DNA from: Eledone cirrhosa
Taxonomy: Eukaryota
Assembly (NCBI GenBank): GCA_964016885.1
Contig: OZ024742.1
Coordinates: 108,376,001-108,440,000, forward strand
Reading direction: 5' to 3'
DNA: 64,000 nt
Every line of letters starts with the position of its first letter. Position 1 is the stretch's first letter. Made by a program: the position numbers and the translations under genes. The notes under the pieces are model-generated. The model saw nothing but the letters and a program-made list of their open reading frames with translations. It did not search any database and was not told the origin of the DNA. Of the stretch, positions 3,915 through 58,132 are shown one piece after another.

Positions 3915-4890
3915 CTTTGATGATTCCTGCCATGATGTCTGTTACCAAACTTAAAATCAGACTGAGGAAGCAAAAGAAGAAAGCACCCACTACAAGGTGT
4001 TTTGACACTACCAAGCTGAAGAACGGTGACACAGAAGCACAGTTCGAGGCTGCTTTGAGGAACAGATTTGCTGTCCTTGAGGAGTCTGCACCAGGCTCGG
4101 TCAATTGGTGGGGGGAAACGAAGAAGACCATGGAAGCTGCAGAGAAAGAAATCTTGGGCTAGAGGAAGTCCCTCAGAGAAGCTTGGGTCAGCGACAACAT
4201 CTGGCAGCTGATTAATGAAAGGAAAGCCCTACACCAGCAGAGGCATGCCACTATCCCAGAGGCCATCAAGGTATATCAGCAGTATGTTGACAAGGACAAG
4301 GAGGTTAAACGCAGCGCCCAAAGGGACAAGCGAATGTGGCTTGAGGGTAAGACAGAGGAGGCGGAAGCAGCTGCGGCACGCAATGACATGCGCGCTGTGC
4401 ACCAAATTGCAAAGAAAATCACCGGCAGCTCTAGAGCTAACTCAGGCCCGGTGAAAGCGAAAGATGGTACGCTGCTTTCCAAGGGTGAAGAAAAGTTAGT
4501 CAGATGGGCTGAACATTTCAAGGAAGTCCTCAACCGACCGGAGCCACGTATGCCAGCAGACACTAAGGAACCTACTAGTTTTTTGCCTATCAATACTGAT
4601 GACTTCACCGAGAAGGAAGTCCGCATGGCCATCAAAACCCTTAAGAATAACAAGTCACCAGGTGTGGATGGCATTTCTGCTGAAATGCTGAAGTCAGGAG
4701 GCGAAAGCATGGTCAAGTGGATGGGCCATTTATGTAATCTTGTGTGGAACACGGGTGAAGTCCCAGAATATTGGAGAAACGGAGCGGTTGTCTGTATCCC
4801 CAAGAAGGGCAACCTTGCCGATTGTGACAACTGGCGAGGAGTGACACTTGTCTCCATACCAGGGAAGGTCTATTGTCTGGTGATCCTGAA
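3915..4890 (+). mobile_element. RTE-clade LINE ORF2 internal fragment (end of endonuclease to start of RT), pseudogenised
   Basis: Encodes RNRFAVLEE, RWAEHFKEVLNRPEP, KSPGVDGISAEMLK and PKKGNLADCDNWRGVTLVSIPGK, with stops and frameshifts. Confidence 0.85.
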
Positions 4891-4917
4891 CCATGATGTA
4901 CCCTTTGGTTATTCCTA

Positions 4918-4994
<77 letters not shown>

Positions 4995-5546
4995 TGTTGA
5001 TAGATAGATAGATGGAGAGAGAGAGAGAGAAACAGAGATGTGGATATTTTAATATAAATATTCAACTTCCCCACTGTGTTTGTTGATTGCTTTTTTTTTT
5101 CTTTTGTACCAACCTATAGAATGATAGGGAAACAGTGCTTATGTGGGTACCTATTTCTATATGTCTATACCTTTCTCTAGCTCTCCCTAATCATCTCTCA
5201 AATTCTGATATACAACTGTTTTGCTTTTGTATTTATTCAGTAAACATAAGCATTTATTTGTCCACCTACCTACTTATACACTTACGCAGTTATCTACCGA
5301 CTTATCTATTGCATATACATACTATCTATCATCTATCTAGCTTGGGATAGACACATGTGCTGAGCTCGCTCGGTAAGTTTCGTTTAAACTTATCTGGAAA
5401 TTGTGAACTGTAAACTTTCATTTTTGTACCATTTTGTAGAGAGACTGCCAGGTCAAATTTTGATCTGGTCAGTCTCTCTTTAGGCGAAATAGTGTTGTAA
5501 AAATGTTATCTTTCGAAAAATTTCGAAAAATCCTATTTTGATAAAA

Positions 5547-7378
5547 ATGGCTGAAGCATCTTCACCAACATTCAAAGGAAGAAATTGGAAGTCATACTCA
5601 CAGCTTCCCCCTGCCACTGTCACAGCAGCAGATGCCAAAGGCAGAGGTCAGCCAGAGGAAGAATTTTCTTCACCTGTTGACCGACAACTTGATGTAGCCA
5701 CAACTATACAAGAAACTGAAAACAACAACAACAACGACAACAACAGCAACAATAAAGACAACAACAACAACACAAACGTCACAAGTATCCACACACCAAA
5801 CGAGAAAGACAACAATAACAAAGATGAAAACAACTCAAACGACGAGAAACAAAACAATACAAACACCAACAACGAAAACAAAATATATTTTGCACAAACG
5901 GCTAAATTATCAGTCACTTATGTGCTTGAAGATATTTCAAAAGCCAAAGAAATGCTGGAAAAAGCCAAAAAATATGTATCTTTTGGCGAAAACGGTTCGT
6001 TTTCTATAAATTCACCTCCAAAACAGGCGGAATTACGAACTGTCGTATTCCGTACAATTTTAAATAAAACCAAAAAACCAGCACAACCATCTCAAGCTGA
6101 AATTCAGTTAGTACTGAAAGAAGCGATGAAAGACATCACTTTCATACAAAAGGATAAACTCTATGGGAGTTTATCCATATTGATGAAAGACGAATTGGCG
6201 GCGAAAAAATACTCTGTGTCGCCAATTCGTTCCACACACTACACCTTCTTCCCCACCTACATGGGTAAAAAAACCCAGAGAATATGGAAACCACCATCAC
6301 CCCAAACATAAACTACTGGTGGTTACTAACCGGTTTCCTCAATTTAGACGAGGACAATCTCATTTCAATAGGGAAGGCATCCGGCGACGCGTTCAGTGGA
6401 ACGAGTATCGAAGTTCTGACACAAATAAGGCCAGAACGTATCGCCCAAATCCCTGAGCGCGTCATGCTGGATGACCGTACCCACCTCAACATTATTGTGG
6501 AGGGTAGGCGTCCCTGCTGTTACCTCTGTGGCAATAGAGGTCACCTGAGTTGCCTGTCCCCAGCTCACACAGAAAAAAACACTGCTACCAACACCAACAC
6601 CACCGCAACAACAACAACAAAAACAACCACAACAACAACAACAAAAACCAACAACACCACCACCACCACCACCACAACAACAACAACAAACACGTGAAAA
6701 AACAACACAGAATACTGTCCCACCCAACCCCTCCCACCCAAAACAAATACAAAAACACACACACCGCAAACACTACCAGAAAACATACCCTCCCACCCAA
6801 CAAGGAAGACGAACCCCTTTTGTCGCAAGACGAAAAAGATCCCTTCCAAACAGTAAAAAGAAAGAAGAGGAGGCGCACCACAGACACACTTGTTAACATT
6901 AACCCTCCCCAAGAGAACACAAACTACATACAAACCACCCCTCCCCGTCACACAACACTAACTGCTACACACAAAAAGACCTTACAATATACAAACATGA
7001 ACACAGACAACAAAGAACTACTGAAAACAATTTCATCAAACCCTTCGGTCCAAACTGAAGGGCCTAACTTTATAACTGCTGTGGGACTACCTCATTTAAA
7101 AATGATTAAAGTCCCAATGAACTTTTATAAAACACTGAAAATAAATTTCACGGAGGACGTACCCCCCCCCCCCCCCCCCCCTGCGCCAAACCAATCAACC
7201 GCGTCCTCCTAAAAAATGTTATCCCCCCACCTCACCCAGACACCCACTCAAGCACAAACGCCCCAACCCACATCACACTGATGCCCCTTCACTTCCACAA
7301 ACCACCACCCCACCCAACAGCCCATCCCCAACCAGCATGGAAATTGAGCGGCCCGCTTCCCGGGACGCAGAGAGGTAA
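5547..7378 (+). pseudogene. LINE ORF1 (gag-like, zinc knuckle), frameshifted
   Basis: Consecutive ORFs 5538-6311, 6284-6697 and 6550-7212. IIVEGRRPCCYLCGNRGH knuckle, FQTVKRKKRR basic motif and (AAC)n low-complexity tracts. Confidence 0.75.
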
Positions 7379-7402
7379 GTGCCTTTTCTCCTTACCACCA
7401 AC

Positions 7403-10400
7403 ATGGCTGTGCTAAGAGTAGGGTGTCTAAATGCGCGTGGCCTGGGCTCATCTTGGAAGCAAGCAAATCTTCTAGATGAGCTCAGGTCACGATCTATAAA
7501 TGTGATGGTCATCTGCGAGGCCCGGATCAGCAGCATGCGACAGCTAGCCCCCACCTTTGATGACTTTGAGATGCACGCATCTCTCTGTCAACCCGGTGGT
7601 GGAGTTGGGGTTGTCGTTCTGCTGCAAAAACATCTGGGTCTTGCCACACAGATAGTTCACTTGGACCCAGGGGGTCGACTGGTGGTGCTGGACCTTGGCA
7701 GTGGTGAAGGTGGATCCTTTAGGCTGGTAGCCGCATATGCCCCTTTTGGGACAGAGCGGCCCGACTTTTTCCAGTGTCTGGAGTCTTTTCTAGGGACGTC
7801 CCGTCCCCTGCTTTTAGTGGGGGACTGGAATGGTATCCTGGATGCACGTTGGGACAATGCAGGGGCATGTCCCGATAGAGAGGGGTGCAACAGCCTCAAG
7901 AGGTTACTCGGCCGATTTGACCTGGCCGATAGATTTCGACTAGATTTTCCGACGGTGCCAACCTGGTCTTGGTCAAATCGCAGCGGATCATCTAGGTCGT
8001 ACCTAGATAGGTTTTTAGTTAGAAATAAGGACAGGGACTTTTTAAGTTGTCCAGAAATGCTCATGGTTGGCTATTCAGACCACAAGTTGGTGACCTGCAT
8101 GGTCAACCTTGATAGAACGCATAGACAGGGCACCCGTTACTGGAAGCTCAACTTGTCCTTGCCAGAAAGTAGAGCTTACAGGGATCGGATTAGTACGTTA
8201 GTTAAGGAACGGTTGACTGGAGCGATCGTCAACAGCAGGTGGTGGGTATCTCTAAAGAGAGAGAATAGAGTAGTCTCGATAGAATTTAGTAAGGTTCTAG
8301 CTGCGGATAGGAATAGGAAGGAAAGGGAGCTAATAGATAGAGTAGAAGAGGCAATTAGAAGCGGCGACGTGGCCAGAGTGCTAGCGTCGAGAACGGCTTT
8401 GAGCCAGTTTTTCGACGCGAAGCACGAAGGCTGCGTTGTCCGAAGTAAAATACGTGCTCTAGGGAACGAGGGGACCAAAGCTGTTAGCTGGGCCCGCGTG
8501 ACAGAGGCCAAGAGTGGAACTAAATCCACCATCCGGTCTTTGCGAGACCAGGATGGACGGGCGATCCTTGAGCCTAAACAGATGCGTGGGCCTTTCAAAG
8601 GCACTTTGCCCGACTGTTCGGGAGGGGCGGGAGCCGGTTGGGGATGTGGACTTCGGTCCATACCTCGACCACCTGCCGCGTCTCTCGGACAGGGAGGCGA
8701 AGTCCTGCGAGGAGCCGATTTCGGTCGCTGAGATAGAGGACGTGCTGAGCCAATGCGGCAAACGCAAATCCCCGGGTCTCGATGGTCTTCCATACGAATT
8801 ATATCTAGCTATGCCGGACTTGTTCCACGATCTCTTCGAGGCGGTCTACTGCAACTGGCAACAGAACGGGAGAATTGCCTGTACTGTGACCAAGGGCGTA
8901 GTCACGCTAGTGAGGAATGACGAGAACAAGGGGGACGAAATAAGTAACTTCAGGCCCATAACTCTGCTAAGTACAGAGTTACAGATTTTGGCCAGGGTGC
9001 TAGCAAAGAGGTTGGCGCTTGTCGTGGGCAACCTGGTGGGAGATGCGCAGACATGTGCTATCCCGTCCAGGCCCATCCATGACAGCCACCACCTCATGCG
9101 ATACATCATAGAGAGGGTTGGGAACGAACCCGGCTTTGGTGGGGCTCTGATCAACTTGGATCAATCTAAGGCTTTCGATAGGGTCGACCATGGTTACCTG
9201 GATGCGGTGCTAGCGGCGGCAGGCTTCGGACCCGTTTTCAGGGGCTGGATCACTACTATGCACAGCAGCGGCATCTGCTCTAGGGCCAAGGTGAACGGCT
9301 ACCTCTCGGAGCCGTTCAAAGTCGCGCGGTCCATCCGACAAGGGTGCCCTCTCTCCTCCCTTCTGTATGTGTTGACTCTCGAGCCACTACTGCGGAAGTT
9401 GTTGCAGGGCATCCCTTTGGAACCGGAATTGCGGAAAAGGGTGTCGGCCTACGCCGATGACATGACAGTAATGGTATCGACAGCCTCCGAAATCGGGGCG
9501 ATCGGCACCTTACTGGAGGAGTACGAAAGGTTCACAGGGGCTAAGCTGAACCGGGACAAGCCGATCGGTTTGCAACTCGGCACGTGGAGGGGCAGACCGA
9601 TGCCCTCCGATGGCATCGTCGGACGCTGGACAGCGGGCCCGGTGAAGTTGCTCGGGGTCTGGTTCGGACCAGACCTCCAGGTGGAGAAGAACTGGGCGGA
9701 GGTTACGAACAGGGTGTTTGCACTGACCCAGAAGTGGGCCAGTTGCAAACTATCCCTGAAAGGTCGGGTGGAGGTGGAAAACACCTATATAGCGTCCGTC
9801 ATCTACTACCGCCTGACCGTAGTGCCTTGCCCAAGAGAAACCCTCGCCAAGATGGAGCGCGCGCTCTTCCAATTCCTTTGGAAGAGGCGGGCTCTCTTGG
9901 TAAGGAGATCCATCTGCTGTCAACACCCTTCGAAAGGAGGGCTGGTGATGCCGTGGCTAATGATGCGTAAACACGCATTAAGGCTACGGCACCTCCAAGT
10001 ATTCCTCACCGGTCAACCGGTGTGGGCCTCGTTTGTGAGACGAACCTTTCCCAGACTCGTCTCACTCACGGAGCTGCAATCCTGGGTCAAGCAAAGACCA
10101 AGAAAACTGGGCGCCTGGCACACTGAGTGTGCCCAGGCGCGCACCGCCCTCTGGCAGGCGGATCCGGTTATCAGTGGAGACTCCACCGCAACGTTCTATA
10201 GAGGGCTGGTACGCAGCAGGTGCGACGACGCCCTCGGAGAAGCCCTAGACATGGAGGAAGACGAACTGGCCAGCCTGTTCGGTAGGAAATTCAGCCCGGG
10301 ACCTATGGACAATTTCCAGAAGTCCCTGGCCTGGCAGTGCTACCGAGGGGCTCTACCCGTTCGAGAAAAGCTCTACAGACACGGGCGCCCGGGTAGGGAC

Positions 10401-10832
10401 CCCGCCAAAAAGATCTGTCCCAGATGCGTGTGCGACGAGGAAACCGTTGCACACGCATTGGTACACTGCTCGGGCGTAGCCGATCTGTGGGGCTATGTCG
10501 AACAACTGCTGTCAAGGGTGGGACCGATCCGGTTGACCACCGAGTCTATTGTAATGATCAAGCCGCCTCCCCCCTTCAAAGATGAAGGAGAGGCGGTGTT
10601 TCTGTGCGTAATAGCCATAGTGAAAGAAGTTGTATGGTGGACGCGTCTGAAAGGACTGAGGTCAGGCACCTTTCTCTCTGGCCAACAACTGGTCCGTTTC
10701 TTCCGATATCATTTCGGAAGAAGGATCAGGATGGAGAGAGAGGTGCTGCACCCCAGTAGTTTTTATGAAAGGTGGGTGAAAGTGGCGAGAATGGCCCGTA
10801 TGAATGGGCCTTCTCTTTACATAAGCCTGTAG
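7403..10832 (+). pseudogene. LINE ORF2: APE endonuclease + reverse transcriptase + C-terminal Cys/His motif, frameshifted near 8590-8630
   Basis: CLNARGL, GDWN, SYLDR and SDH (APE). KSPGLDGLP, LDQSKAFDRV, RQGCPLS and YADD (RT). CPRC..ETVAHALVHC at the C-terminus. Confidence 0.92.
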
Positions 10833-15668: not shown

Positions 15669-16576
15669 AAAAAACGATATAGAGGAAGAATCGAGTCCAC
15701 TCGAACGGAGGAAATATAAAACTGACCTCGATATGATTTGAACTCAGGGTACGCAGAGAGATACGGTACGAATACTACAAAACATTCTATCCGACGATCT
15801 AACGATTTAGGGATTTTTGTTTCCTCATTGTTTTTGTATATTTTATTTTTAATTCGAATATAAAATCCTCGTGTATATTTATACATAAACTCAAAAACTT
15901 ATACAATTACTTACCCTTGCACAGTATCAAATGTTCGGTATTTAATCAGGAAATTAATTCTTCTGATTTCTGGTGCAATATATCAAAGCAATATCAACCA
16001 TGATTACTAACACAAAAGCTACGTATACTCAAGCGGAGTTCTATCTATAGCTTTTATTCAATATGTCAGTCATAAACGATATAAACATCGTATCCTATTT
16101 CGGTGCCTATGAATCATGTCTGGCGTTTGTTTCTTAATAGATATTCTTCAAATTAATACCATTGTATAATGTGGAATTAAAACAACAATACAACTTACTT
16201 GTTATCTTAATGTGGAGATTTTTCTCTTTATCAACAGAAACTAATGACAACTTTAAAAGGTTACTACTTGACATTTTAGCTATGAAGTAGAATACAGAAA
16301 ATTAATCTCGATTTCTATGTTCATTCTAGTGATTAATGCGGTGACGATGTATCTAATTTTATGCATTCTTTTTTATACAAACTGAGAAACCTCTTAGAAC
16401 ATCCATATCAACTTACAAAGACGCTAAAATTAATTGCAGTATACATAAGATATTTTCTATATTTTCTTTTATACTGATATTACTTTCAGTTTTTACTGTG
16501 AGTGTCAAGGATTATCGCTGATCATGCAACAGCAATTTTCTTTACATGGCAAAGTATATATAGGAAATATATAGTA

Positions 16577-16608
<32 letters not shown>

Positions 16609-17012
16609 CCATATACATACACATATATACATTTTGGTTGCTCGTGCCTCCTCTCTCTCACTTTCTCCTGTCTATGTGAGAGTCAGCGAGATTATACCAG
16701 CTCTGAGTCGTAGCTGACCACCAGGTTAAAGTCTCCCAGGTTGGCCACAACTTACTTTCCCTATTTTTCCACGGTTACTCTTTTGCCTGTTTCTTTCACC
16801 TGTGTCTTCCCACGATGTACACTTTTTTTTCTCCTATTCCTTTCCTATTTTTTCCCCTTTTCCCTTCCCCCCTTTGTTCCTCACTCCTCATCTCCCCCTG
16901 TCCTGTTCTTCCTCCTTTACCTCTCTTCCCTTTTCTCTCTCCTTTTTTCTCCCCTTTTTTCTCTCTTTCTCTCTCCTTTTCCACCTGGCCTTTTGATTAA
17001 TAAAAGGCCTCG

Positions 17013-17088
17013 GGCGCACCGGAACTATATCGATGTCCTGTAATTCAGCGCCGAAACATCGGATCGGGAAACATTTACAGCTGACGAT
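17013..17088 (+). ncRNA. Non-circularly-permuted hammerhead, second family
   Basis: ggcgc..cgatgT-C|ctgtaa..gcgcc-GAAA-catcg..ttacag-CTGACGA. Stems III and I are perfect, and the cleavage triplet is GUC. Confidence 0.7.
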
Positions 17089-17228
17089 GGAAACTCCTTT
17101 CCTCCTTTCTTCCTTTCTTCCTTTCTCCTCTTGTTCCGTTCTAACCACCATCCTAAACGTTGTTTTTAGTAACCACACAGCTCCTTTCGTTTCATATCAT
17201 TTTATATTATATATATATATAAATATAC

Positions 17229-17289
<61 letters not shown>

Positions 17290-22710: not shown

Positions 22711-23282
22711 AATGCCCCCCCCCCCCCTTCCCCTCAAGAAAAGTACTTTCATTGGTTGATTATCTAATGATGCAAGTAGGTCTAAGCGAAGGCGTCTCAC
22801 TGAAAATGTAAATGCGACTGCGATCAGGCTCTCACAGAATGCTGTGCAGACGGCAGCTGCAAAAGCGGAAGAGGATGACAGTCGGTGTGAACTTCGACGG
22901 AACAAAGATGCTGCCGCGACTGCTGCTCGCGTTCGAGAGGATGAAGGATGACGCGCCGTTCGACAAAGCAGGGACGCCACTGCAACAGCCGCTGCTCACG
23001 CGCGAGAGGATGAAGGATGACGCGCCGTTCGACAAAGCAGGGACGCCACTGCAATAGCTGCTGCTCGCGCTCAAGAGGATGAAGGACAACGCGCCGTTCG
23101 ACGAAGCAGGGACGCCGCTGCCACTACTGCTGCATGAAATACTGAAACCATAGAGCAACGACGTGGCCGACTTCTGCAAAGTGAACAGCGGCGATCATCG
23201 TTACGTGGCATTTCTCTGGACTTGCAATTCACGATAATTTCTGAAGGACTTTAACTACGACCCCTCCTCTGACTACGCTGTG
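22711..23282 (+). pseudogene. Helitron RepHel N-terminal fragment with about 66-bp coding tandem repeats
   Basis: Repeated gctgctcgcg..gaggatgaaggatgacgcgccgttcgacaaagcagggacgccactgc, ending in FNYDPSSDYA. Confidence 0.6.
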
Positions 23283-23289
23283 CTTGCCT

Positions 23290-23809
23290 GGAAACCTGCA
23301 CGTCTACAAGTCCTTTGACTCTATGGCTGATCCGGACGAAGTTGTTAATTACCCCACAGAATTTCTTAACTCTCTGGACTCTCCTAGATTGCCACTACAC
23401 TTACTGCGACTCAAGAAAGAAGCTCCTGTCATGCTCCTCAGGAATTTGGAACCCCGGCACGCGTCTGGTCCTCCAAAAGGCGATGCTTCATGTTATTTAG
23501 GCAACAATACTTACAGGATGTGGTAAGGGGGATACTGTCTTCATACCAAGGATACCTCTCATTCCATCCGGTAAAGACATTCCTTTCACATTCAGAAGGC
23601 TGCAATTCCCTCTTCCGCTCAGTTTCGCCATGTCGATTAACAAATCACAGGGTCAGACGCTGACGGTCGGAGGGCTTAATTTAGAAGAACCGTGCTTCTC
23701 CCATGGTCAACTATATGTTGGCTGCTCTCGAGTGGGGAGCCGACATAACCTATTTGCTTTTGCAACTCGCGAAAAAAACCAAAATATAGTCTATAAGGAA
23801 GTTTTGTAG
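23290..23809 (+). pseudogene. Helitron PIF1-like helicase C-terminal fragment
   Basis: YPTEFLNSL, VMLLRNL, FIPRIPLIPS, RRLQFP, FAMSINKSQGQT, FSHGQLYVGCSRV and NIVYKEVL*. Confidence 0.9.
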
Positions 23810-25204: not shown

Positions 25205-25254
25205 AATAATGGAGCTGCGGCGCTGCAAATGGGTTACATATGAAAAAGTTTGTC

Positions 25255-25325
25255 CTCATCAGTGGCTTTCCAACCGTCGTAGGCATTTCGTCGCATTAAA
25301 GGCCATATACCTCAGGTTGGTGCGA
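25255..25325 (-). ncRNA. Non-circularly-permuted hammerhead, family 1
   Basis: Reverse complement: tcgca-ccaacc-tg-aggtaT-A|tggcctt-taa-tgcga-c-GAAA-tgcct-acgac-ggttgg-aaagcca-CTGATGA-g. Confidence 0.7.
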
Positions 25326-25513
25326 GCAACGGCTAAAAAAAGTCGTTGGGACACGTAAATAAAGGGGACGCTAGGGTAAACAGACAAAATGGTTTAAGCA
25401 GCAGAAAGTGATGTTGTTTCTTCTTCATCACTTTCTGCTGCTTAAACCATTTTGTCTGTTTACCCTAGCGTCCCCTTTATTTACGTGTCCCAACGACTTT
25501 TTTTAGCCGTTGC

Positions 25514-25584
25514 TCGCACCAACCTGAGGTATATGGCCTTTGATGCGACGAAATGCCTACGACTGTTGGAAGGCCACTGATGAG
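25514..25584 (+). ncRNA. Non-circularly-permuted hammerhead, family 1
   Basis: Same layout. Stem I tggcctt/aaggcca, core CTGATGA at 25577-25583, predicted cut after 25533. Confidence 0.7.
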
Positions 25585-25593
25585 GACAAACCT

Positions 25594-25624
<31 letters not shown>

Positions 25625-25626: not shown

Positions 25627-26311
25627 CGGAAAAAATGAAACGAAATTTCATTTCTCTCTCTTAGTACGGCTGTTACTTAAATATAAGTATGTATACGTAC
25701 ATACATTTATGTATACAGACGTACAGTAGCTTGTATATACATATGTTCGGTGAATGTTCGGTGAATCCATATATATATGTTCGGTGAATCCATACGTACA
25801 TATATATATGTGTGCATGTATGTATATATATATACATACTCCTGTACGTCTGTATACATATATGTATGTACGTATACATACTTATATTTAAGTAACAGCC
25901 GTACTAAGAGTGAGAAATGAAATTTCGTTTCATTTTTTGCGTTTATCGTTTTCGGTACCCCGGCCAATTAACTCTCTCGATATGCAAATTTGGCTGCTCA
26001 GCCGTTAATATGCATAAGGAAAATAAATACTTTCAGACGTTCAATCATCTGGCAGGAAAGTATACGTTGCTGACGATAGCCAATAAGCTTGAAACTAGTA
26101 CAGCGTTCCTTTGTCAGGGTTGAACAAATGAGCAACGACGGTTGCTAGACACTGTACGGCTTAATTCGGGATGTTTGTTTACAAACACACCGAGCATTAT
26201 AATAAATGTTCGGTGAATCCATACGTACATATATATATGTGTGCATGTATGTATATATATATATACATACTACTGTACGTATGTATACATATATGTATGT
26301 ACGTATACATA

Positions 26312-26350: not shown

Positions 26351-26486
26351 AAATTAAAAAACAAAAACAATAGCAAGGAGTGCAGTTTACGAACAGTGTT
26401 TGGTATTAGGGTCACGCTTGAGAGTGGTGGGTGGTGGATATATATATACATATGAATGAAAAATAGAGCGAGAAACAGAACTATCC

Positions 26487-26558
26487 ATCATCAGTGATCT
26501 TCTGACTATCATCGGTATTTCTTCGCATTAAAGATGAGATACCTCAAAGTCAGTGCGA
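26487..26558 (-). ncRNA. Non-circularly-permuted hammerhead, family 1 (diverged)
   Basis: Extra helix is ctgact/agtcag, triplet AUC, and the 10.1-11.1 pair is T-A. Confidence 0.65.
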
Positions 26559-27385
26559 GCAATAACTAAAATAAGTTATTGGGATAAAAAGAATTGGGTG
26601 GAGAAAGAGAGACATGTAAACAAACAAATTCGAAAGGCGACATAAAGAGAGGAAAATGAGAAAACAAGTCAATGATACATGTGAAGTTAAGTTCTAGCAA
26701 ATCAATGACGAGAAGACGACAGACGCGTCCGAACCCTGCGAAATTTGAGCGAGAAAAGGATTTCACACAGGTCAGACGGGAGGAAGTGAGAGAGGGGGAG
26801 TAGCAGAGAGGGAGTGGGTGAAAGTGTGAGGAAGCCGCCAGCCGACAGAGTGTGACCAGCAGAGGGGGTGAATGAAAGTAAGACGTACAAGGAGAGAGAA
26901 GGGGGATAGAGAAAGAGGATAGCAGTAAGGTGATAGAAACAGACGGGTCGCAACGAGGGGAAAAATATAGGAATGCAAAATGGCGTGCATTTATATTTAA
27001 GGATCTGCTTTTCTTTTTCTTCTTCTTTGATTCGTCAAGGTGACATTATTGAAAAAAAATGAGAGGAACAATTCTTTAAAAAAAAGAGTTTTATAATGTA
27101 TATAAAATATATAAAATATATAAAATATAATCGGTTTCGATGTATCAGTATGGACCATCTTATCAAATGTTGAATATCACAATTGAAAGGAATTAAAAAG
27201 AATAAAAAAGAATAAAAGAATAAAAAAGAATAAAAGTTGAAACGGTCTATTCATGCACACACACACACACATATTTATATATACATATATATACACATAT
27301 ACATACATACACATATATATACATACATACACACATACACACGCATACACATACACACATATATATATATATTTAATATAGATGA

Positions 27386-27434
27386 GATTCTACAGGACTA
27401 GAACTGTTTCATTCATTAGAAATCATCAGGAATC
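27386..27434 (-). ncRNA. Type I hammerhead in a small fold-back (mirror copy 27435-27477 on +)
   Basis: Reverse complement: gattc-CTGATGA-t-ttc(taat)gaa-t-GAA-acag(ttctagtc)ctgt-A|gaatc. Confidence 0.75.
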
Positions 27435-27563
27435 TCCTGATGATTTCTAATGAATGAAACAGTTCTAGTCCTGTAGAATCTCATCTATATTAAAACTGTT
27501 ATACTCTGCTATGTATTGAGTACCTTACTTACTGTGGTTACCTCCGATTCAACCCGGAATAAC

Positions 27564-29281: not shown

Positions 29282-29382
29282 TATATATAATATATATATA
29301 TATATTTATCCTTCTATGTTGTTCACTTGTGCCCCTCGCTTTACGCGATTTACTGGTCCCAATAACTTTTTTTAGTTATTGC

Positions 29383-29453
29383 TCGCACCAACCTGAGGTA
29401 TATGATTTTTAATGCGATGAAATACCAATGATGGTTGGAAAATCACTGACGAA
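29383..29453 (+). ncRNA. Non-circularly-permuted hammerhead, family 1
   Basis: Stem I is tgatttt/aaaatca (compensatory changes), core CTGACGA, and the 10.1-11.1 pair is A-T. Confidence 0.7.
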
Positions 29454-29511
29454 GGACTATTTTTATCATATGTAACCCATGTGCAACCACGCAGTATTCT
29501 TCTTTCTTCTC

Positions 29512-31044: not shown

Positions 31045-34017
31045 CAGGGGTCGGCAACCTTTTGGAGAGAGAGGGCCAAACAGCTATGCAGTGTCATGGA
31101 GGAGGGTCATGTTATTAAATATGTAAATTCATTTTCTGAAGGTTTAAAGCAAAACAAGGAATTTAATATCATTTTATTTTAACAAGGCCCCTTATTTTAC
31201 TGCAGGAATAACAAAAAAAAAGAAGAAAAAACTACAAACACGTTCAACAAAAAATAGCAAATTCCTTATTTTACTGCTGGAATAACAGAAAAACAACTAC
31301 TATCACAATCAACAACAAAAAAAAGCAAATTCCTTGCTACAAACGAAATACAGTTAGAAATGGTAAATGATTTAATGAGACACTTGTTTCTGCTTATTGT
31401 GCAATAACCTCTCCACATCAGATGAAATATTTGTCGATGACAGGAGCAAAACATCATCCAGGTGGTCATCACGCAACCTTGTTCTTAAATGACTTTTAGT
31501 ATATTTCATATATATATTTTGGAAAAAAGTTGTTCACAAGCATATGTACTTACAAATAATGATATCATCAGTTTCGCATTAGTCAAGATGTTTTTATATT
31601 TTCCGCTTGGCAATATATATTTCTTGTAGAAGTCAGCAGTGTATTCGAACTGAAATTTCGATTTCAAAGATTCGTCGCACTGTAAGTCAATTAACTCCAA
31701 CTGATATTCTTCTGCCACTTGCTCCACATCTGTTTCGTAAGGAGTACCAAATAACTTAAATAAAGTTCCATATTGCCGGAAGTCAGCAAAACGAGAGGAA
31801 AATTCGTTTCTCAAATCCTTAATAGAGCTCACAAAGATGCCTGGTATTATATCTCTCTTGTGATATTGGAGACTTGGGAAATGAGAGTAGTTTCCTTTTT
31901 GAAGTTGTGATTCCCACATTCGAAGTTTTCTCTCAAAAGCAGTAATTTGACCAAACATCTCAAATACAACCTTGTTCTTTCCTTGAAGCTCAAGATTCAA
32001 AGTGTTCATGTGGGTCGTGATGTCCACTAAAAAAGCTAACTTGACAACCCACTGTGGATCCTGAAAGTAAGAATTATCTTGGTATTTGCTCTCTAAAAAC
32101 ATAGAAATCTCTTCTCTCAATGCATATACTCGTTCTATCTTTTATCCGCGGCTAAGCCATCGAACATTAAAAAAATATGTAAGGTCGCCATACTCTGCTT
32201 CAATTTGTTTTAGAAATTCTTGAAACTGGCGGTTATTTAGTCCTCTTGACAGTATAAAATTCACTGTCTTCACGACCCCTGCCATGGTGTCCTTAAAATT
32301 CAGTGAATTTGCACATAATGCTTCTCGATGAATAATGCAATGAAATTTGATTAGTTTTTGATTAATACCGATGTGCTTTTGGAGCAATGCAATAGACCCC
32401 CTTTTCTCTCCAACCATTGTTACTCCAGAAAGCTTTGATAAATCCAGATTCATTTCGGTAATCCATTTTATTATGCTTTCCAAAATATCTGCTCCAGTGC
32501 TAGTGTCCTTCATAGGAATCAATTGTACAAATTCTTCCACAATATCAAATGTTGGTGTTACACCCCTCACAAACACTGCAAGTTGACAAGTATCCTTCAT
32601 ATCTGTGGTTTCATCGATAGCAATGGAATAATACTCCAGATTATTTAAAATGCTCTTCAAGCCATTTCTGACATTTGCTGCCAGCTCTTCAATTCGCCTT
32701 GTTCTTGCCGATAAGCTGATCGCAGAAAATAATTCCCTTTTTTCTGGACAAACAACATCTGCTACCTTCAACAATAATTCTTTGAAGAAATCTCCATCAG
32801 TAAAAGGTTTCATCCTTTCTGCAATTAGTTTTGACATCTCGTAGCTAGCACGAGTGTCGCGGTCACTTTCTTCAACTTTTCTAGTGAAAAAGGATGATTG
32901 CTTTGTTACATTATTTCTCAGCCGTGCAACTTCGTTTACTCGTGCTTTTCCAGTAAAACTGTTGTAATGATTATGACGAGTTTCATAGTGCCGTTTAATA
33001 TTTTAAACTTTCTTCACGGCAATGGTTTCTTGACAAATTAAGCAAACACATTTTCCGAAGTGTTCAATAAAAAAATAGCTAAGTGTCCAGCCATCGTTAA
33101 AAGTTCGGCACTCCAAATCCACTTTTCTTTTCTTAGCTTCCATGGGCTTGTTTTTGTTCAAACAAAAAAGATTTATGGAAAGGAAAAATAACAAAAAGTA
33201 TAATAATTAGAATGAAGAAATAAGAAACAATGAAAACAAATGTAAATGCAAATACAGTAATGCGATAAAATATGATAATTGTGAATAAATTATATAAAAC
33301 CAGGTTTCTAACCACGTTGTTAGATCAGGGTTGCCATTTGTTTTTTAAACCACTTTTGGCCTAATTCTAATAATAATAATTCACACAATTTATCACAAAT
33401 AATTAAATAAACGTTATTATCGAATAAAGATACCTACTGTATAGTTGTTATACCACAAGACAAAAAACTCAAATGAAAATACTCTGGGGAGGAGGGAACG
33501 AAGTAATTTTTCCAAGGACAGTTTTACATTGTGCCAGGGGCCACAGGTAAGGTCAGGCAAACGAAGACAACAATAATTCACGAGTGATTTTATTGAATGA
33601 CAATATGGGTATAAAAGCGAGTCATGCGAACCGTAAGGTAGTATACCTTCCATTCGCTGACGAAAATGCATACTTCCAGCCAACATGTGTGTTTGTTAAC
33701 TGGAACAAAAACACATACATGAAATCACAGGAAATAATAATACAGGTGATATAATGCTTGGCGGAAAGGCCAGAAAAAGATGGATAAGAGGAAATAATAA
33801 TAAATGGAAAATATAATAAGGTTACAAAGGTATCTGTAAATATATACGGTATGAGCAGCGATTTGTGATGGGCATCAGGTCGACACAACCTTGAGTGAAC
33901 TACTGTATCTGTATTCGATACTAATTACATAATTAGTGTCCAGTGTAATATGGCGGGCCGGACAAGAATCACTCGAGGGCCGGATGTGGCCCGCGGGCCA
34001 GGGGTTGCCGACCTCTG
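31045..34017 (-). mobile_element. hAT DNA transposon (Buster/Charlie/SPIN-like), both ends intact
   Basis: TIRs CAGGGGTCGGCAACC / GGTTGCCGACCTCTG. 8-bp TSD cactagag (31037-31044) vs ctctagag (34018-34025). Confidence 0.92.
31372..33143 (-). pseudogene. hAT transposase (GTF2IRD2/SPIN-like), frameshifted
   Basis: MEAKKRKVD..CVCLIC..KRHYETRH zinc finger, YSIAIDETTD, HCIIHREAL, VRWLSRG, LAFLVD, STYACEQLFS and QVSH*. Confidence 0.9.
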
Positions 34018-36943: not shown

Positions 36944-38434
36944 ATTATATATAGGGTTTAAAGTTTTGGAACGAGTGTCGGAAGCGGTGTTGGCAAGTTG
37001 CGAACACTTCTGATTTTTTATTAAGGAGATTATGTTTAAAGAAGATGATAGTATGGGTCTCTAGTAGACAGAGGTTACAAAATTTATTAGGTTGTTTGTA
37101 CGATGTTGCACTACCTACCACTTCCCATTTAAGTGTATATATTTTATTTTTAGTTTTTAGATAGTGTATGTAGCTAGATAGTGAAGTGGAGTTGGCTAGA
37201 CTGTGTTTTTTGAAAGAGTGGAGGTGCGAATTGTATCTAGTTGTGAAGCAGTTAGAAGTAGAGCCTATATAGGTTTCAGAAGAGTTGTTAGTTGTGACTG
37301 TACATGAGTATATGATATCCTTGGTTAAGCATTTTTTATCTAAAGGGCAGGTTCTACTTGATCTACAGTTACAATTACTCTGGGTGCTAGTCTGCCGGTT
37401 ACTATGCTGTGTAGAAGTTTGGATGCTTGCTATAGGGTTATGGTTATGTGGGTTGTGGTACGCGGCGTTAATGTTTACACTATTGCTATTACTATTATTT
37501 CCATTGATATTACGGTTATTTGCTATAATGTTACTTTGACTGTTATTTTGAATGTTATTTTGAAGGTTTATCGACTGTTGTGATTTAGTTTGTTGGAAGT
37601 AAGAATTATTTTTTCTTTTATTTGTACTAGCTATGTGGTATGCTAAGTTAGGCGTAGTAGAGTAAGAGATCTTAATAGTGTTTTTGTTTAAAAGGCCGTG
37701 GTACCTGTGGCCGATGGGAAGTGTTTATCTAGTAGTGAGAAGAAAGCCCTAGGTAGGTTGGTGGAGACGTTTAAATTGAAAGGAGGGTTGAAAAATGTAT
37801 TATTTCTTCTTCTATTTCTGCTTTTTATGTCTGGTGATTTGTTTCCTTTACTGTTCCTATGGTCATTTCTGTGGTGCGGGTTACTTTTGTTGTTACAATC
37901 CCTATTAGTGTGTGTGCAGTTGCTATTCCTATTGTTAAATTTTCCCATGGACATGTTGTGTGAAATGATGCTGTAGCTATGTGTTTTTATAGGTAGGAAC
38001 TCTATCTCTGTATTATGGCCTGATCTAGCTAATGCCTGATTATAATACTGAGAATTATTGTTAAATGTGTTTATGTCATAGGATAGACTAGAGATTCTAT
38101 TAGATACTCCCTTAGAGATAGAGTTCAATATAAATTTAGGGTGGTTAGACTTGGTATCTACGTAGATGAGTTTTTCATTAGGTTTGTGGAAAGGTGCATA
38201 CATCATTGAGTCTAGGTAGAGTGTGGCGTCTAGGAAGTTGACGTTTTTGGTGTTTTTGTCCATGGTAATACTAAGGTTAAAGTTTTTGAATGTTTTGTGC
38301 AATAGTTTTCTAGTCCTTTCTATATTGAATTTTTTATAGTCTATAAGTAGAAGTGCATCGTCCCGATACAAACCACCGCTGAGGTACGGAAGTTCCCTGT
38401 GGATTTGGTTAAGTAAGTATAGGCCAACTAAATC

Positions 38435-38497: not shown

Positions 38498-38557
38498 GAA
38501 TATGGGTGAGAAGAATACTGCTGGTTGCACATGGATAACATGTTATAAAATGAGTCC

Positions 38558-38629
38558 CTCATCAGTGATTTACTAAACGATCATGGGTATTTCATCGCAT
38601 TAAAAATCATATACCTCACGTTGCAGCGA
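38558..38629 (-). ncRNA. Non-circularly-permuted hammerhead, family 1 (diverged)
   Basis: Reverse complement: aggtaT-A|tgattt..tgcga-t-GAAA-taccc..aaatca-CTGATGA-g. Confidence 0.6.
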
Positions 38630-38675
38630 TAATAACTAAAATAACTTATTAGGACAATAGAAACGCGTAAAGCGA

Positions 38676-40598: not shown

Positions 40599-41510
40599 TA
40601 TATGTATATACATACATGCACACATATATATATGTACGTATGGATTTACCGAACATTTATTATAATGCTCGGTTTGTTTGTAAACAAACATCCCGAATTA
40701 AGCCGTACAGTGTTTAGCAACCATCGTTGCCCTTTTGTTCAACACTGACAAAGGAACGATGTACTAGTTTCAAGCTTATTAGCTATGGTCAGCACCGTAT
40801 ACCTTCATTTCTCACTCTTAGTACGGCTTTTACTTAAATATAAGTATGTATACGTACATACATATATGTATTCAGACGTACAGTGGTATGTATATATATA
40901 CATACATGCACACATATATATATGTACGTATGGATTTAGCGAACATTTATTATAATGCTCGGTTTGTACAGTAGTATGTATATACATATGTTCGGTGAAT
41001 GTTCGGTGAATCCATATATATATGTTCGGTGAATCCATACGTACATATATATATGTGTGCATGTATGTATATATATATACATACCACTGTACGTCTGAAT
41101 ACATATATGTATGTACGTATACGTACTTATATTTAAGAAACAGCCGTACTAAGAGTGAGAAATGAAATTTCGTTTCATTTTTTTCCATTTATCGTTTTCG
41201 GTGCGCCCGGCCGATTAACTCACTCGATATGCACAATAGGCTGCTCAGCCGTTAATATGCATAAGGAAAGTATATACTTTCAGACTTTCAATCATCTGGC
41301 AGGAAGGAATACGGTGCTGACGATACATATACATACTTATACGTATACATACATATACATACTTATATTTAAGTACGTATATGTATGTATACGTATACGT
41401 ACGTATACATACTTGTATTTAAGTAACAGCCGTACTAAGAGCGAGAAATGAAATTTCGTTTCATTTTGTTCCATTTATATATATATATATATATATGAAA
41501 AAGTGAGTCC

Positions 41511-41581
41511 TTCATCAGTGACCCTCCAACCGTCCTCGGCATTTCATCGCTTTAAGGGCCATATGCCTCAGGTTGGTGCGA
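41511..41581 (-). ncRNA. Non-circularly-permuted hammerhead, family 1
   Basis: Stem III ggcat/atgcc, stem I tggccct/agggtca, and the 10.1-11.1 pair is A-T. Confidence 0.7.
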
Positions 41582-41769
41582 ACAACGGCTAAAAAAAGTC
41601 GTTGGGACACGTAAATAAAGGGGACGCTAGGGTAAACAGACAAAATGGTTTAAGCAGCAGAAAGTGATGTTGTTTCTTCTTCATCACTTTCTGCTGCTTA
41701 AACCATTTTGTCTGTTTACCCTAGCGTCCCCTTTATTTACGTGTCCCAACGACTTTTTTTAGCCGTTGC

Positions 41770-41840
41770 TCGCACCAACCTGAGGTATATGGCCTTTAAT
41801 GCGACGAAATGCCTACGACGGTTGGAAGGCCACTGATGAG
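41770..41840 (+). ncRNA. Non-circularly-permuted hammerhead, family 1 (best-preserved copy)
   Basis: tcgca-ccaacc-tg-aggtaT-A|tggcctt-taa-tgcga-c-GAAA-tgcct-acgac-ggttgg-aaggcca-CTGATGA-g. All four helices are intact, with a predicted cut after 41789. Confidence 0.78.
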
Positions 41841-41849
41841 GACAAACTT

Positions 41850-41889
<40 letters not shown>

Positions 41890-42531
41890 GGAAAAAATGA
41901 AACGAAATTTCATTTCTCTCTCTTAGTACGGCTGTTACTTAAATATAAGTATGTATACGTACATACATTTATGTATACAGACGTACAGTAGTATGTATAT
42001 ACATATGTTCGGTGAATGTTCGGTGAATCCATATATATATGTTCGGTGAATCCATACGTACATATATATATGTGTGCATGTATGTATATATATATACATA
42101 CCACTGTACGTCTGAATACATATATGTATGTACGTATACGTACTTATATTTAAGTAACAGCCGTACTAAGAGTGAGAAATGAAATTTCGTTTCATTTTTT
42201 TCCATTTATCGTTTTCGGTGCGCCCGGCCGATTAACTCACTCGATATGCACAATAGGCTGCTCAGCCGTTAATATGCATAAGGAAAGTATATACTTTCAG
42301 ACTTTCAATCATCTGGCAGGAAGGAATACGGTGCTGACGATACATATACATACTTATACGTATACATACATATACATACTTATATTTAAGTACGTATATG
42401 TATGTATACGTATACGTACGTATACATACTTGTATTTAAGTAACAGCCGTACTAAGAGCGAGAAATGAAATTTCGTTTCATTTTGTTCCATTTATATATA
42501 TATATATATATATATATGAAAAAGTGAGTCC

Positions 42532-42602
42532 TTCATCAGTGACCCTCCAACCGTCCTCGGCATTTCATCGCTTTAAGGGCCATATGCCTCAGGTTGGTGC
42601 GA
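42532..42602 (-). ncRNA. Non-circularly-permuted hammerhead, family 1
   Basis: Identical to 41511-41581. Confidence 0.7.
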
Positions 42603-43287
42603 ACAACGGCTAAAAAAAGTCGTTGGGACACGTAAATAAAGGGGGACCGCTAGAGTAACAACAAAAGGGTTTAAGCAACGGAAAGTGAGTAGAAATAGAC
42701 AAGTCCCAGATCTCTATGAATATAAACTCTGTGAAATCGTGAACAAGAGACGAAAGACCATCGAACCTGGTAGAAATGTGAGCAAGGAAAGAATTTCGCC
42801 CAAGTTTGACGGGGGGGAAAAAGAGAGAGAGAGAGAAAGAAAAAGGAGAGAAGAGGAAGAAGAAGAAGAAGAAGAAGAAGAAGAAGAAGAAGAAAAAGAA
42901 GAAGAAGAAGAAGAAGAAGAAGAAGAAGAAGAAGAAGAGGATAAGGAGTTCTGGTCTATGAATTCGGTAAACGCAAGTTTTGTGAAGTCGCAGACGAAAG
43001 AGAGAGAGAAAAAAATTCCATACCAGCTCGGTCAAGACTGCGCGAGAAAAGAATTACACACAGGTCAAACTTGAAGGAGGAGGAGGAAAGAGGAGGAGGA
43101 GAGGTAGTGACAGAGAATGAGTGAGTGAAAGTTGAGGAGAGGGTAACAGAGAGGGAGACTGCTAGAGTTGGTAAAGATACAAGGAACGAAACAGACGAAG
43201 GCAGCATGGAAAAATTATATGTGTAAATATGATGATAATAATGGAGCTGCGGCGTTGCAAATGGGATACATATGAAAAAGTGAGTCC

Positions 43288-43358
43288 TTCATCAGTGACC
43301 CTCCAACCGTCCTCGGCATTTCATCGCTTTAAGGGCCATATGCCTCAGGTTGGTGCGA
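43288..43358 (-). ncRNA. Non-circularly-permuted hammerhead, family 1
   Basis: Identical to 42532-42602, 756 bp away on the same strand. Confidence 0.7.
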
Positions 43359-43499
43359 ACAACGGCTAAAAAAAGTCGTTGGGACACGTAAATAAAGGGG
43401 GACGCTAGAGTAACAACAAAAGGGTTTAAGCAACGGAAAGTGAGTAGAAATAGACAAGTCCCAGATCTCTATGAATATAAACTCTGTGAAATCGTAAAC

Positions 43500-46562: not shown

Positions 46563-47020
46563 TAAAGAACTAGAAATAGAAGTTAGGAATATCCATCGTC
46601 AGTTGTCTACTAGGCATCATAGGTATTTCTTCGCATTACAGACAATATACCTCCGTCTAGGGCGATACAATAACTAAAATAAGTTATTGGGATAAAAAGA
46701 GTTGGGTGGAGAAAGCGAAAGACATGTAAACAGACACGAATGGTGGGGCAACGTAATGAGAGGAAAAAATGAAAAAAATCAAGTCAATAATTCATTCCGA
46801 ACATAAGAAAAGGCGAATATTGACGAGGAGATAAAGATACATATTAGGCGCACGGATGTGAGCGAGGAAAAGGATCGCGTACGGTGTGGGATCCCAATAA
46901 CTTATTTTAGCTATTGTATCGCCCTAGCTGGAGGTATATTGTCTGTAATGCGAAGAAATACCTATGATGGCTAGTAGACAACTGATGACGGATATTCCTA
47001 ACTTCTATTTCTAGTTCTTC
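46563..47020. repeat. Fold-back element with two permuted hammerheads (46595-46665 on -, 46919-46989 on +)
   Basis: Arms about 46563-46693 and 46891-47020. Stem I ttgtct/agacaa and extra helix ctagc/gctag. Confidence 0.8.
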
Positions 47021-48241: not shown

Positions 48242-48855
48242 GTAGAATACTGGAAGGTAATATCCGTAGTGGTAGAGCGGATCCTCAGCTCGTAATGGAC
48301 ATGGTTATACGGAACAGGAAGGACAACCGTACGAATGCACATGCGCAGAAACCGTCACTTCACACAGGCAATACCAAAAAGCGTGCGAGAGGTGTAAGGG
48401 AGATAACTGCGAAAGTCCGAAACGTTTCTAGTTGATAAGAAAATTAGGATCTTGTGATTCACTCCGGAGCTTTCTAGTTAAAGTAAGAGGTGTTTCGAGA
48501 CGTGTGGACAACGTCTGAAAAATTCATTCCTAGTGTTTAGGCAATCACTATTGCATAATCTCTTTAGAATATTTATTCGTTCATCAATACATAGTCCACA
48601 CGACGGATTTCCCCTTGCGTATGGCTTGGAGTTAGTGATGGCTTTCCATTGAATGGAGTAGTCTATACTTGAGTCCTCGAGGGACCATGCATAGCTCGCG
48701 AGTTTCGTGGATGAACGTCTGTCCGGGTACCTAAAGGTAGTGGGAATGTTCTTCAGGGAGTAATCCAGTTCGTATAAATCCATACTGACGTTGATGAGAC
48801 ACAAAATTGTATAGGACACGAGGACATATAGATTGCTCTCAAGGTAGTAAGCCAT
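48238..48855 (-). mobile_element. Internally deleted Naiad-type PLE (ORF start fused to GIY-YIG C-terminus)
   Basis: MDLYELDYSLKNIPT joined in frame to TFRYPDRRSSTKLAS..CGLC..LNTRNE..CPH. The 3' region is shared with 57052-57330. Confidence 0.75.
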
Positions 48856-48859
48856 ATAT

Positions 48860-49500
<641 letters not shown>

Positions 49501-52354: not shown

Positions 52355-53050
52355 AATGAAGAATTAGAAATAGAAGCCAGGACTATCCATCATCAGTGGT
52401 CTACTAGCCATCATAGGTATTTCTTCGCATTAAAGACCCGATACCTCAGGCTAGCGCGAACAATAACTAAAATAAGTTATTGGGATAAAAAGAATTGGGT
52501 GGAAAAAGAGAGACAGGTAAACAAACACGAATGGTGAAGCAACGTAAAGAAAGGAAAAAAATGAGAAAATCAAGTCAATGATTCATTTGAACATAAGAAT
52601 TTGCGAATATTGACGAGAAGACGAAAGACACATCTTAACCGTGCGAAAGTAAGCGAGGAAAGAATTTCGCACGGTGTGGGACGATGGAGGAAGTGAGAGA
52701 GGGTGAGTAGCAGAGAGTGAGTGAGTGAAAGTGTGAGGAAGAGGCTAGCCGAGAGAGGATGACTAGCAGAGGGGGTGAATGAAAGTAAGAGGGAGAAGGA
52801 GAGAGAAGGGGGAGAGAGAAAGAGGAAAGCAGTAAGGGAAGAGAAAAAGACAAGTCAGAGCGAAGGTGAAAGCATATAGGAATGAAAAACTCCACCCAAT
52901 TCTTTTTATCCCAATAACTTATTTTAGTTATTGTTCGCGCTAGCCTGAGGTATCTGGTCTTTAATGCGAGGAAATACCTATGATGGCTAGTAGACCACTG
53001 ATGATGGATAGTCCTGGGTTCTATTTCTAATTCTGCATTTTAATTTGTAT
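52355..53050. repeat. Fold-back element with two permuted hammerheads (52389-52459 on -, 52935-53005 on +)
   Basis: Arms about 52355-52503 and 52891-53050. Stem I tggtct/agacca, extra helix ctagcc/ggctag, triplet AUC. Confidence 0.8.
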
Positions 53051-57054: not shown

Positions 57055-57747
57055 TGGTAGAACACTGGAAGGTAATATCCATAGTGGTAAATCACTCAGT
57101 CCATGGGACGAGTTAGGTAGAAGTGGTTACACAACAGTTAGTTCACCATACCGAAAACAATTGTTTCACCTTAGCGGATCCTCAGCTCGTAATGGACATG
57201 GTTATACGGAACAGGAAGGACAACCGTACGAACGCGCATGCGCAGAAACCGCACTTCACACAGGCAATACTAAAAAGCGTGCGAAAGTCCGAAAAGTTTC
57301 TAGTTGATGAGAAAATTAGGATGTTGTGATTCAATCCGGAGCGTATGGCTTGGACTTAGTGATGGCTTTCCATTGAATGGAGTAGTCTATACTTGAGTCC
57401 TTGACGGACCATACGTGGCTCGCGAGTTTCGTGGATGAACGTCTGTCCGGGTACCTAAAGGTCGACTGGTGGTTCAGGAAGCGTTCCTTAAATCGGCCCT
57501 CCGCCATACCCACATAGGATTTGACCTCTTGTGGTTGATTTGGACGGTTGGAAGTGACCACAGCTTCATAAATTACAGCGGGTGTGTTGCATTGTTGTTG
57601 AAGGGGACAAGCTTCGGGCTTACGGCAAGAGCACCCTGGTGGGGTGTTGCTCTTAGGGCTGTTGGTGATGTGGGCCTTCATGTTCTTAGCGCAGTAGTAT
57701 CCTAGTTTTACTTTGTGTCGGTTAAAGATGGAGCGGTATCCACTTCT
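57052..57747 (-). mobile_element. Naiad-type PLE 3' fragment: GIY-YIG + pLTR, flanked by (TA)n
   Basis: CSCRKPEACPLQQQC..VIYEAVV..SYVGMAEGRFKERFLNH, with the hammerhead downstream. Confidence 0.85.
57152..57189 (-). ncRNA. Minimal type I hammerhead in PLE pLTR (truncated copy 46472-46504)
   Basis: Reverse complement: cgag-CTGAGGA-t-cc(gctaa)gg-t-GAA-acaattgt-T|ttcg. Confidence 0.7.
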
Positions 57748-58132
57748 ATATATATATATAGACCCCCAGTAGACAACTGATGAGGAAAACTCCTCCGCCC
57801 CCGTTCTAGCTTTCTTCGTATTCCCACTACATTTTAAGTTATATATATATATAAGTTTATCCCGGGTTCAATCGGGGGTAACCACAGTAAGTAAGGTACT
57901 CAATACATAGCAGAGTATAAATATTTAATATAGACATTTCTCCCGAATGAAACTGTTCTATCCGATAGAAGCCATTTCTATATTAAATATTTATACTCTA
58001 CTATGTATTGAGTACCTTACTTAGTGTGGTTTCCCCCGATTGAACCCAGGATAAACTTATATATATATATATATAACTTAAAATGTAGTGGGAATACGAA
58101 GAAAGCAAGACCGGGGAGGGGGGGGGGGGTTC

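Follow-up and report, generated by a model that had tools for sequence, protein, structure and literature searches.

A candidate permuted hammerhead ribozyme near the end of a Penelope-like repeat in Eledone cirrhosa

We analysed 64,000 nucleotides (nt) of the Eledone cirrhosa genome (GenBank assembly GCA_964016885.1, contig OZ024742.1, positions 108,376,001 to 108,440,000 of the forward strand; hereafter the window). Within it, a domain that includes positions 17013–17088 is likely to form a permuted, pseudoknotted hammerhead ribozyme with a predicted cut after C17037, located near the end of what we take to be a non-autonomous repeat of the Naiad type of Penelope-like elements (PLEs). The first-pass annotation of this DNA had described 17013–17088 as a second, sequence-unrelated case of a permuted fold seen in another repeat of the window (family 1; the repeat studied here is family 2) and had regarded the fold as an old or recurrent class. 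It had recognised neither the published block order SGC, nor two further helices, nor the Penelope-like host.

The hammerhead core

The core consists of the following strands, from 5' to 3'.
17013–17017 (+): strand D (GGCGC), the 5' strand of stem II, in which G17013 would replace G10.1; assigned from position, partner counts and alignment
17019–17024 (+): extension of stem III, 5' strand; partner 17063–17068
17030–17037 (+): 5' strand of stem III with the GUC triplet, cleavage predicted after C17037; assigned by descriptor
17038–17043 (+): stem I strand 3' of the cut; assigned by descriptor, with AU43/UA11 at the fifth pair
17044–17047 (+): linker of 4 nt from stem I to stem II
17048–17052 (+): strand D' (GCGCC), the 3' strand of stem II, whose last base is C11.1
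17053–17062 (+): core GAAA (17053–17056, G12 to A15.1) and stem III 3' strand (17056–17062)
17063–17068 (+): extension of stem III, 3' strand
17075–17080 (+): stem I strand 5' of CUGAnGA
17081–17087 (+): core CUGACGA (C3 to A9)

The sequence hallmarks of a hammerhead are present, namely the CUGAnGA core, GAAA, a UH triplet, and the two stems (I and III) that border the core. Stem I (17038–17043 with 17075–17080) comprises six Watson–Crick pairs and stem III (17030–17036 with 17056–17062) seven, while U16.1 and C17 of the triplet correspond to 17036–17037. The blocks are arranged in the order site-GAAA-CUGAnGA and the structure is pseudoknotted. Two of the six pairs in the stem III extension are broken in the window copy and intact in most copies, and the triplet in family-2 matches is GUC (32/40) or GUU (8/40). 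A partner of at least five pairs for D' was found upstream in 28 of these 40 matches, which are related copies and not independent events, as compared with 4.0 expected from shuffles; a downstream partner of this length was found in none of the 40.

The first-pass annotation had located D, D', stems I and III, GUC, GAAA and CUGACGA exactly where we find them and had placed the expected cut after the same base, 17037, and its statement that family 1 shares the architecture with different helix sequences also holds, blastn likeness between the two families being confined to microsatellites. Its outer bounds were too narrow, as the domain spans 16978–17093 once a helix (E) and a hairpin (P0) outside the core are included. 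A nested fold of the 96-nt segment 17005–17100 gave no signal (z +0.85), which is expected because the RNA is pseudoknotted; the 121-nt domain 16976–17096 gave z −1.8. Two other choices of core were rejected: a second GAAA at 17068–17071, in another pairing register, has the sequence GATA in 7 of the 38 other rows of family 2a and is missing from subfamilies 2b–2d, and the GAAA right after CUGACGA would leave stem II with 2 nt and is not conserved.

Covariation in the core and in two further helices

The outer parts of the domain are as follows.
16978–16983 (+): helix E 5' strand, pairing with 17088–17093; assigned from compensatory pairs and the minimum free energy (MFE) fold
16984–17012 (+): hairpin P0, which fills the interval from helix E to strand D without a gap; assigned from the MFE fold and a covarying counterpart in family 1
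17088–17093 (+): 3' strand of helix E, starting with the base next to A9; assigned from compensatory pairs

Both helix E and P0 are contained in the MFE fold of 16976–17096, and the full strand order is E5'-P0-D-stem III/GUC/stem I-D'/GAAA/stem III-stem I/CUGACGA-E3'. We aligned 55 family-2 copies, comprising the window copy and 54 of 56 blastn rows (a duplicate and an inversion-truncated copy were dropped). Across this alignment 94.6% of cells were paired, against 34–48% in slid controls, with values of 96.9% for stem I, 97.5% for stem III, 96% for P0 and 94.3% for D/D'. Compensatory changes were detected in helix E at the first pair (AU35/UA15) and the fourth pair (UA39/CG9), two-sided changes occurred in stem I (AU43/UA11 and AU41/UA5), and P0 had a single two-sided change. 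For family 1, 23 of 25 rows were aligned after removal of two 5'-truncated rows. Two-sided changes were present in P0, the stem III extension and stem I of these 23 copies, and helix E occurred in two versions, GUCC/GGAC and AUCC/GGAU. The base 3' of CUGAnGA pairs with the base 5' of GAAA in 19 of the 23, with five pair types. This single-pair covariation, taken together with helix E of family 2, indicates that the CUGAnGA block has been opened after 10.1 in family 1 and after A9 in family 2.

These observations bear on whether the element is a known hammerhead type. Eckert, Friedrich, Weinberg and Weinberg (2023; PMC10085705; all published sources are cited here for the parts accessible to us) divided the hammerhead into blocks S, G and C, each assumed to be uninterruptible, and their descriptors require CUGAUGA followed by (U)G and the 3'-side strand of stem II. 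It is possible to read the present sequence as an ordinary SGC ribozyme with a short stem II, in which U17088 is an inserted U, G17089 and G17090 pair with C17052 and C17051, and D and E are accessory or alternative helices. The SGC-1 oligonucleotide of these authors has CUGAUGA-U-GG starting stem II (PMC10085705), the two G–C pairs are possible in 49 and 51 of the 55 copies, and family 1 takes its first stem II pair from the 3' strand. However, when the 3'-strand rule for stem II (strand right after CUGAnGA(U)G, with at least two further pairs) was applied with position 7 freed, only 1 of 48 family-2 copies and 0 of 22 family-1 copies with intact cores passed. Position 17088 covaries with 16983 (AU35/UA15), placing the tail in helix E, and several tails of published Naiad elements, viewed by eye, begin with A or C and would be unable to pair with C11.1. 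An ordinary SGC ribozyme is therefore unlikely. No SGC 'I' helix between the G–C linker and the 3' tail was seen by eye (no formal scan was made), and the tail instead pairs upstream.

Frequency of the permuted order

The first-pass annotation had proposed comparing a descriptor search with shuffled controls. Our descriptor specified stem I (at least 5 pairs) and stem III (at least 4 pairs) in site-GAAA-CUGAnGA order and did not require D. It detected 11 distinct sites in the window (17013–17088 and 10 of family 1), far above the mean of 0.01 and maximum of 1 in 100 block-wise dinucleotide shuffles of the window. In 400 kb from other stretches there were two sites, as compared with none in five shuffles. 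A stricter scan of 464 kb for all six block orders and the present form yielded eight sites of the present form, four of type I and none of the remaining block orders, with none of any kind in four shuffles. Genome-wide, the core-only pattern GYCGAAA-N22..36-CTGAYGA had 2245 matches against 358 for a reversed control, some of the inspected matches being chance occurrences or canonical hammerheads.

A chance arrangement that was then spread by copying of the repeat would be compatible with the non-independence of copies within a family and with the outcome of an Rfam search, which gave no matches in the window at gathering score; a local run likewise matched no hammerhead family, even with E values of up to 10 admitted. 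The absence of Rfam matches would be expected if the models hold the classic strand orders alone. Against such an origin, several families with different helix sequences have a common layout and shuffles yield close to zero sites. We consider chance, already disfavoured by these data, to be very improbable.

Family-1 copies, which have this wiring and are frequently arranged as inverted pairs, lie at 25236–25603, 26468–26598, 29343–29472 and 38539–38668, with further copies at 41491–43443, 46576–47008, 52370–53024 and about 58140 (−).

The host repeat and its insertion

The ribozyme candidate lies in the following setting.
16555–16629 (strand not assigned): (TA)n tract, left flank, the likely insertion target
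16632–17206 (+): 5'-truncated copy, about 575 nt long, of a head-to-tail non-coding unit of about 820 nt (family 2a)
16820–16977 (+): pyrimidine-rich tract within the repeat unit
17203–17288 (strand not assigned): (TA)n tract, right flank

The pyrimidine tract noted upstream in the first-pass annotation is thus part of the repeat unit, and the (TA)n noted downstream begins about 115 nt past CUGACGA. The window copy has no convincing open reading frame (ORF), two low-complexity frames overlapping it. Searches of the 3.0-Gb genome yielded at least 1185 candidates with a 541-nt query and at least 801 with the ribozyme alone, and family-2 copies are 85–89% alike over the 541 nt. Head-to-tail periods of 753–847 nt were observed in eight loci, with one hammerhead per unit. 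The same wiring is carried by subfamilies 2b–2d and by at least two older families, giving at least four families in the genome.

We compared the ends of 30 copies, including the window copy, that were picked by their last 80 nt. All 30 share one 3' end point, followed by an AT-type tract and approximately 165–170 nt past the predicted cut, while their 5' ends vary and three have an inverted 5' piece. The predicted cut site is crossed by 21 copies and the other nine begin 3' of it. Four copies start 1–9 nt after the cut and two start 5–7 nt before the cut of the previous unit, but 5' ends near the cut are at only about twice the local density. Partial tandems, a fixed 3' end, variable 5' truncation and inverted 5' pieces are the pattern of a non-autonomous Penelope-like element. 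The AT-type right flanks (30/30) match the (TA)n bias of Naiads, a trait also common to Neptune elements.

Resemblance to Naiad ends

Naiads have (TA)n targets, partial tandems and inverted pieces and are described as lacking canonical hammerheads, and some of their ends bear unexplained motifs labelled 'HHR_core' or 'half_core' (Craig et al. 2021, PMC8557442). We read the 54 Naiad consensi in File S5 of that paper by eye rather than by computation, so that motifs split between lines were missed; the motif places seen were 23/23 for CTGACGA, 45/62 for CTGATGA, 15/43 for CTGAAGA and 15/25 for CTGAGGA. The E-P0-D-S-G-C wiring was present, with different helix sequences, in 9 of the 54: three from Acropora, the Octopus entries Obim and Ovul (in which helix E is weak, with four pairs), and four near parts 9, 12, 12 and 19. 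One further consensus, near part 8, has a stem I of two pairs only. Type CSG was found at six of the 54 ends, clean and with an extra long helix, mostly in nematode entries (parts 13–16) and at least three times in Nippostrongylus. These folds occur in entries that the authors marked HHR_core or HHR_half_core or left unmarked. At the motif places seen, the remaining consensi had neither fold; neither fits several ends with CUGAnGA from the spider and crustacean region (supplement parts 16–19), and most bivalve entries showed no such fold at these places.

Two older families of Eledone cirrhosa extend this comparison. Both are decayed, have GUA triplets and share the wiring. One (L128–L142, near 1500; 1011 candidates) resembles the Octopus Naiad end by eye; the other is represented by L114–L116 (near 4968, −). 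When a 14-nt motif from the Octopus Naiad end was searched for exactly, it had seven matches against 11 for a control; three of the seven look by eye like decayed relatives, and no reverse transcriptase was present upstream of those inspected. Follow-up searches led to one old non-coding family (that with 1011 candidates) and otherwise to unrelated repeats, one weak match or no match. A protein search intended to provide a Naiad query gave 18 PLE-like proteins.

The ribozyme could be correctly identified and nevertheless belong to a retrozyme-like passenger that depends for its mobility on the Neptune- or Poseidon-type elements, which are abundant in this genome, rather than on a Naiad. PLE fragments with a C-terminal endonuclease are common in the DNA inspected, no Naiad ORF was found at the loci inspected, and Neptune is also linked to (TA)n (PMC8557442). 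On the other hand, of 15 such 3' ends viewed by eye, the approximately six with readable hammerheads were all of type I and none had this wiring, which is instead carried by published Naiad ends as read by eye. We regard a Neptune or Poseidon passenger as possible but doubtful, and favour a Naiad-type host.

The finding of at least four families, and of the same fold at Naiad ends of several phyla as read by eye, supports the part of the first-pass proposal that held the fold to be old, and indicates that it is widespread; recurrent origin is less likely. Because all families share the layout of helix E, hairpin, D and stem III extension, their unrelated sequences probably reflect old common descent and not repeated invention.

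Proposed mechanism and weight of the evidence

The three-dimensional core would be that of a normal hammerhead, with D/D' as stem II. A9 would lead into helix E and not into stem II, such that E and P0 form a junction between A9 and G10.1; these two helices may hold D beside the core and replace the direct link from A9 to G10.1. Hammerhead chemistry produces a cyclic phosphate and a 5'-OH, and by analogy with validated permuted forms these ends would result from the cut after C17037. Transcription through tandem copies would yield RNAs that are cut to unit length. A reverse transcriptase/endonuclease of the Naiad type may then nick (TA)n and start cDNA synthesis internally, approximately 165–170 nt downstream of the cut site. 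As most copies cross this site, the template for cDNA would be uncut or re-joined (circular) RNA. An internal cDNA start has a precedent in a Poseidon PLE, for which ribozyme cleavage was dispensable for insertion in vitro (PMC11167929).

Several points weigh against this interpretation. With 21 of 30 copies running through the cut site, the template is not simply cut linear RNA, and in the Poseidon PLE, where cleavage was dispensable, none of the RNA-seq reads had its end at the site (PMC11167929). Within the 55 family-2 copies D/D' and stem III are without two-sided change. Two of five summary measures for family 2 fail to beat shuffles (294/500 and 195/500), and the other three are inflated by kinship between copies. 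A count test of helix E in family 2 gave 35/40 against 31.1 expected, a failure attributable to base composition because the partner strand lies within the pyrimidine tract; this putative helix is supported instead by the constant register of its strands and by covariation. Inspection of the DNA upstream of copies, covering a very small fraction of the 3-Gb genome, revealed no autonomous Naiad ORF, and in cephalopods Naiads have been characterised as inactive remnants (PMC8557442), yet the copies are 85–89% alike. Finally, the likeness to Naiad ends comes from visual reading and not from computation.

Some of these points would also suit a protein-binding or template-positioning signal of ribozyme descent that cleaves poorly or never. 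Apart from the 21 copies that traverse the cut site, such a signal would be consistent with the lack of a direct link from A9 to G10.1, with the less usual triplets of family 1 (AUA/AUC) and with the PAc hammerhead, which cleaves only with the help of protein and without which insertion still proceeds in vitro (PMC11167929). The catalytic core and U-H triplet, however, have been kept across families with complete turnover of the helices, and we judge a non-cleaving signal improbable compared with an active ribozyme.

Other elements in the window

C-terminal GIY-YIG fragments of PLEs, presumably of Neptune type, occur at 36945–38434 (−), 57331–57867 (−) and 48478–48921 (−), with a Pfam E of 0.002 that is below the cut-off. 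At 57185 (−), a PLE fragment is followed by a canonical hammerhead of type I whose stem III is palindromic. Hammerhead-like motifs in canonical order are present at 2635 (+), 27429–27437 (both strands), 28623 (+) and 58285 (+), one of which we take to be of the small dimer-forming kind. Another repeat, at 26070 (+), 27894 (−), 41317 (+) and 42334 (+), contains CUGACGA, with GAAA about 15 nt later in two of the four copies. The window also includes a near full-length non-LTR (long terminal repeat) retrotransposon at 5493–10832 (+), with endonuclease-like (450 amino acids) and reverse transcriptase-like (776 amino acids) frames, which we assume to be L1/Tx1-like from its motifs. Other pieces are presumed to be an RTE-like reverse transcriptase fragment at 4163–5011 (+), hAT-like transposase at 31506–33002 (−) and a PIF1/Helitron-like helicase fragment at 23245–23809 (+).

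Comparison with known hammerheads and elements

Type I hammerheads in pseudo-LTRs (pLTRs) of PLEs and in retrozymes were reportedly described by Cervera and de la Pena in 2014. For permuted hammerheads in Naiads or in animal genomes, we found no report in the literature covered, from which most subscription journals are excluded, and the accessible parts of PMC10162972 and PMC13725137 describe no such wiring. On balance, we lean towards the view that the present form is a seventh hammerhead topology outside the six orders of Eckert et al., that it is active at thousands of sites in animals, and that it accounts, together with CSG, for the hammerhead that Naiads seemed to lack. If so, non-circularly permuted ribozymes would be old, encoded by host genomes and distributed across several animal phyla, and would move from environmental RNAs of unknown host to high-copy sequences of animal chromosomes. 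The assumption that the CUGAnGA block is uninterruptible would be broken. The published view that Naiads thrive without hammerheads, which has been used to argue that ribozymes may merely parasitise PLEs, would be overturned.

Our repeat resembles Naiads in targeting (TA)n, in forming pLTR-like arrays of partial tandems, in having inverted pieces with 5' truncations and, by eye, in the fold at the 3' end; it differs in that the unit lacks an ORF and no autonomous partner was located in the inspected loci. Non-LTR retrozymes are similar in having a non-coding head-to-tail unit with one hammerhead each, derived from a PLE end, but theirs are of type I (CGS), unlike the unit described here; that preprint used type I descriptors only (bioRxiv 10.64898/2026.07.22.740005).

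Among permuted hammerheads, types SGC and CSG have been validated by in vitro cleavage at the analogous site, SGC (HRIMA-1 and variants) being reported from metatranscriptomes only, CSG from two metagenome sequences, and neither from the genome of a known organism (PMC10085705). The present form shares with SGC the S-G-C order, the core and the pseudoknot, with a linker between stems I and II of 4 nt as compared with typically 3 nt. It differs in being a genomic repeat of an animal, in the position of the 5' strand of stem II, which is upstream of the cleavage block and not 3' of CUGAnGA, and in the interruption of block C between A9 and 10.1 by helix E and P0. By analogy, it would work like a type SGC hammerhead but fails one defining feature, because the stem II strand is supplied from upstream and not directly after CUGAnGA. 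In CSG, as with D here, a stem II strand stands ahead of the S and G blocks, whereas here the part with stem I and CUGAnGA comes last, at the 3' end, making this a form between CSG and SGC. If our interpretation is correct, tandem pLTRs would provide a route between CSG and the present form.
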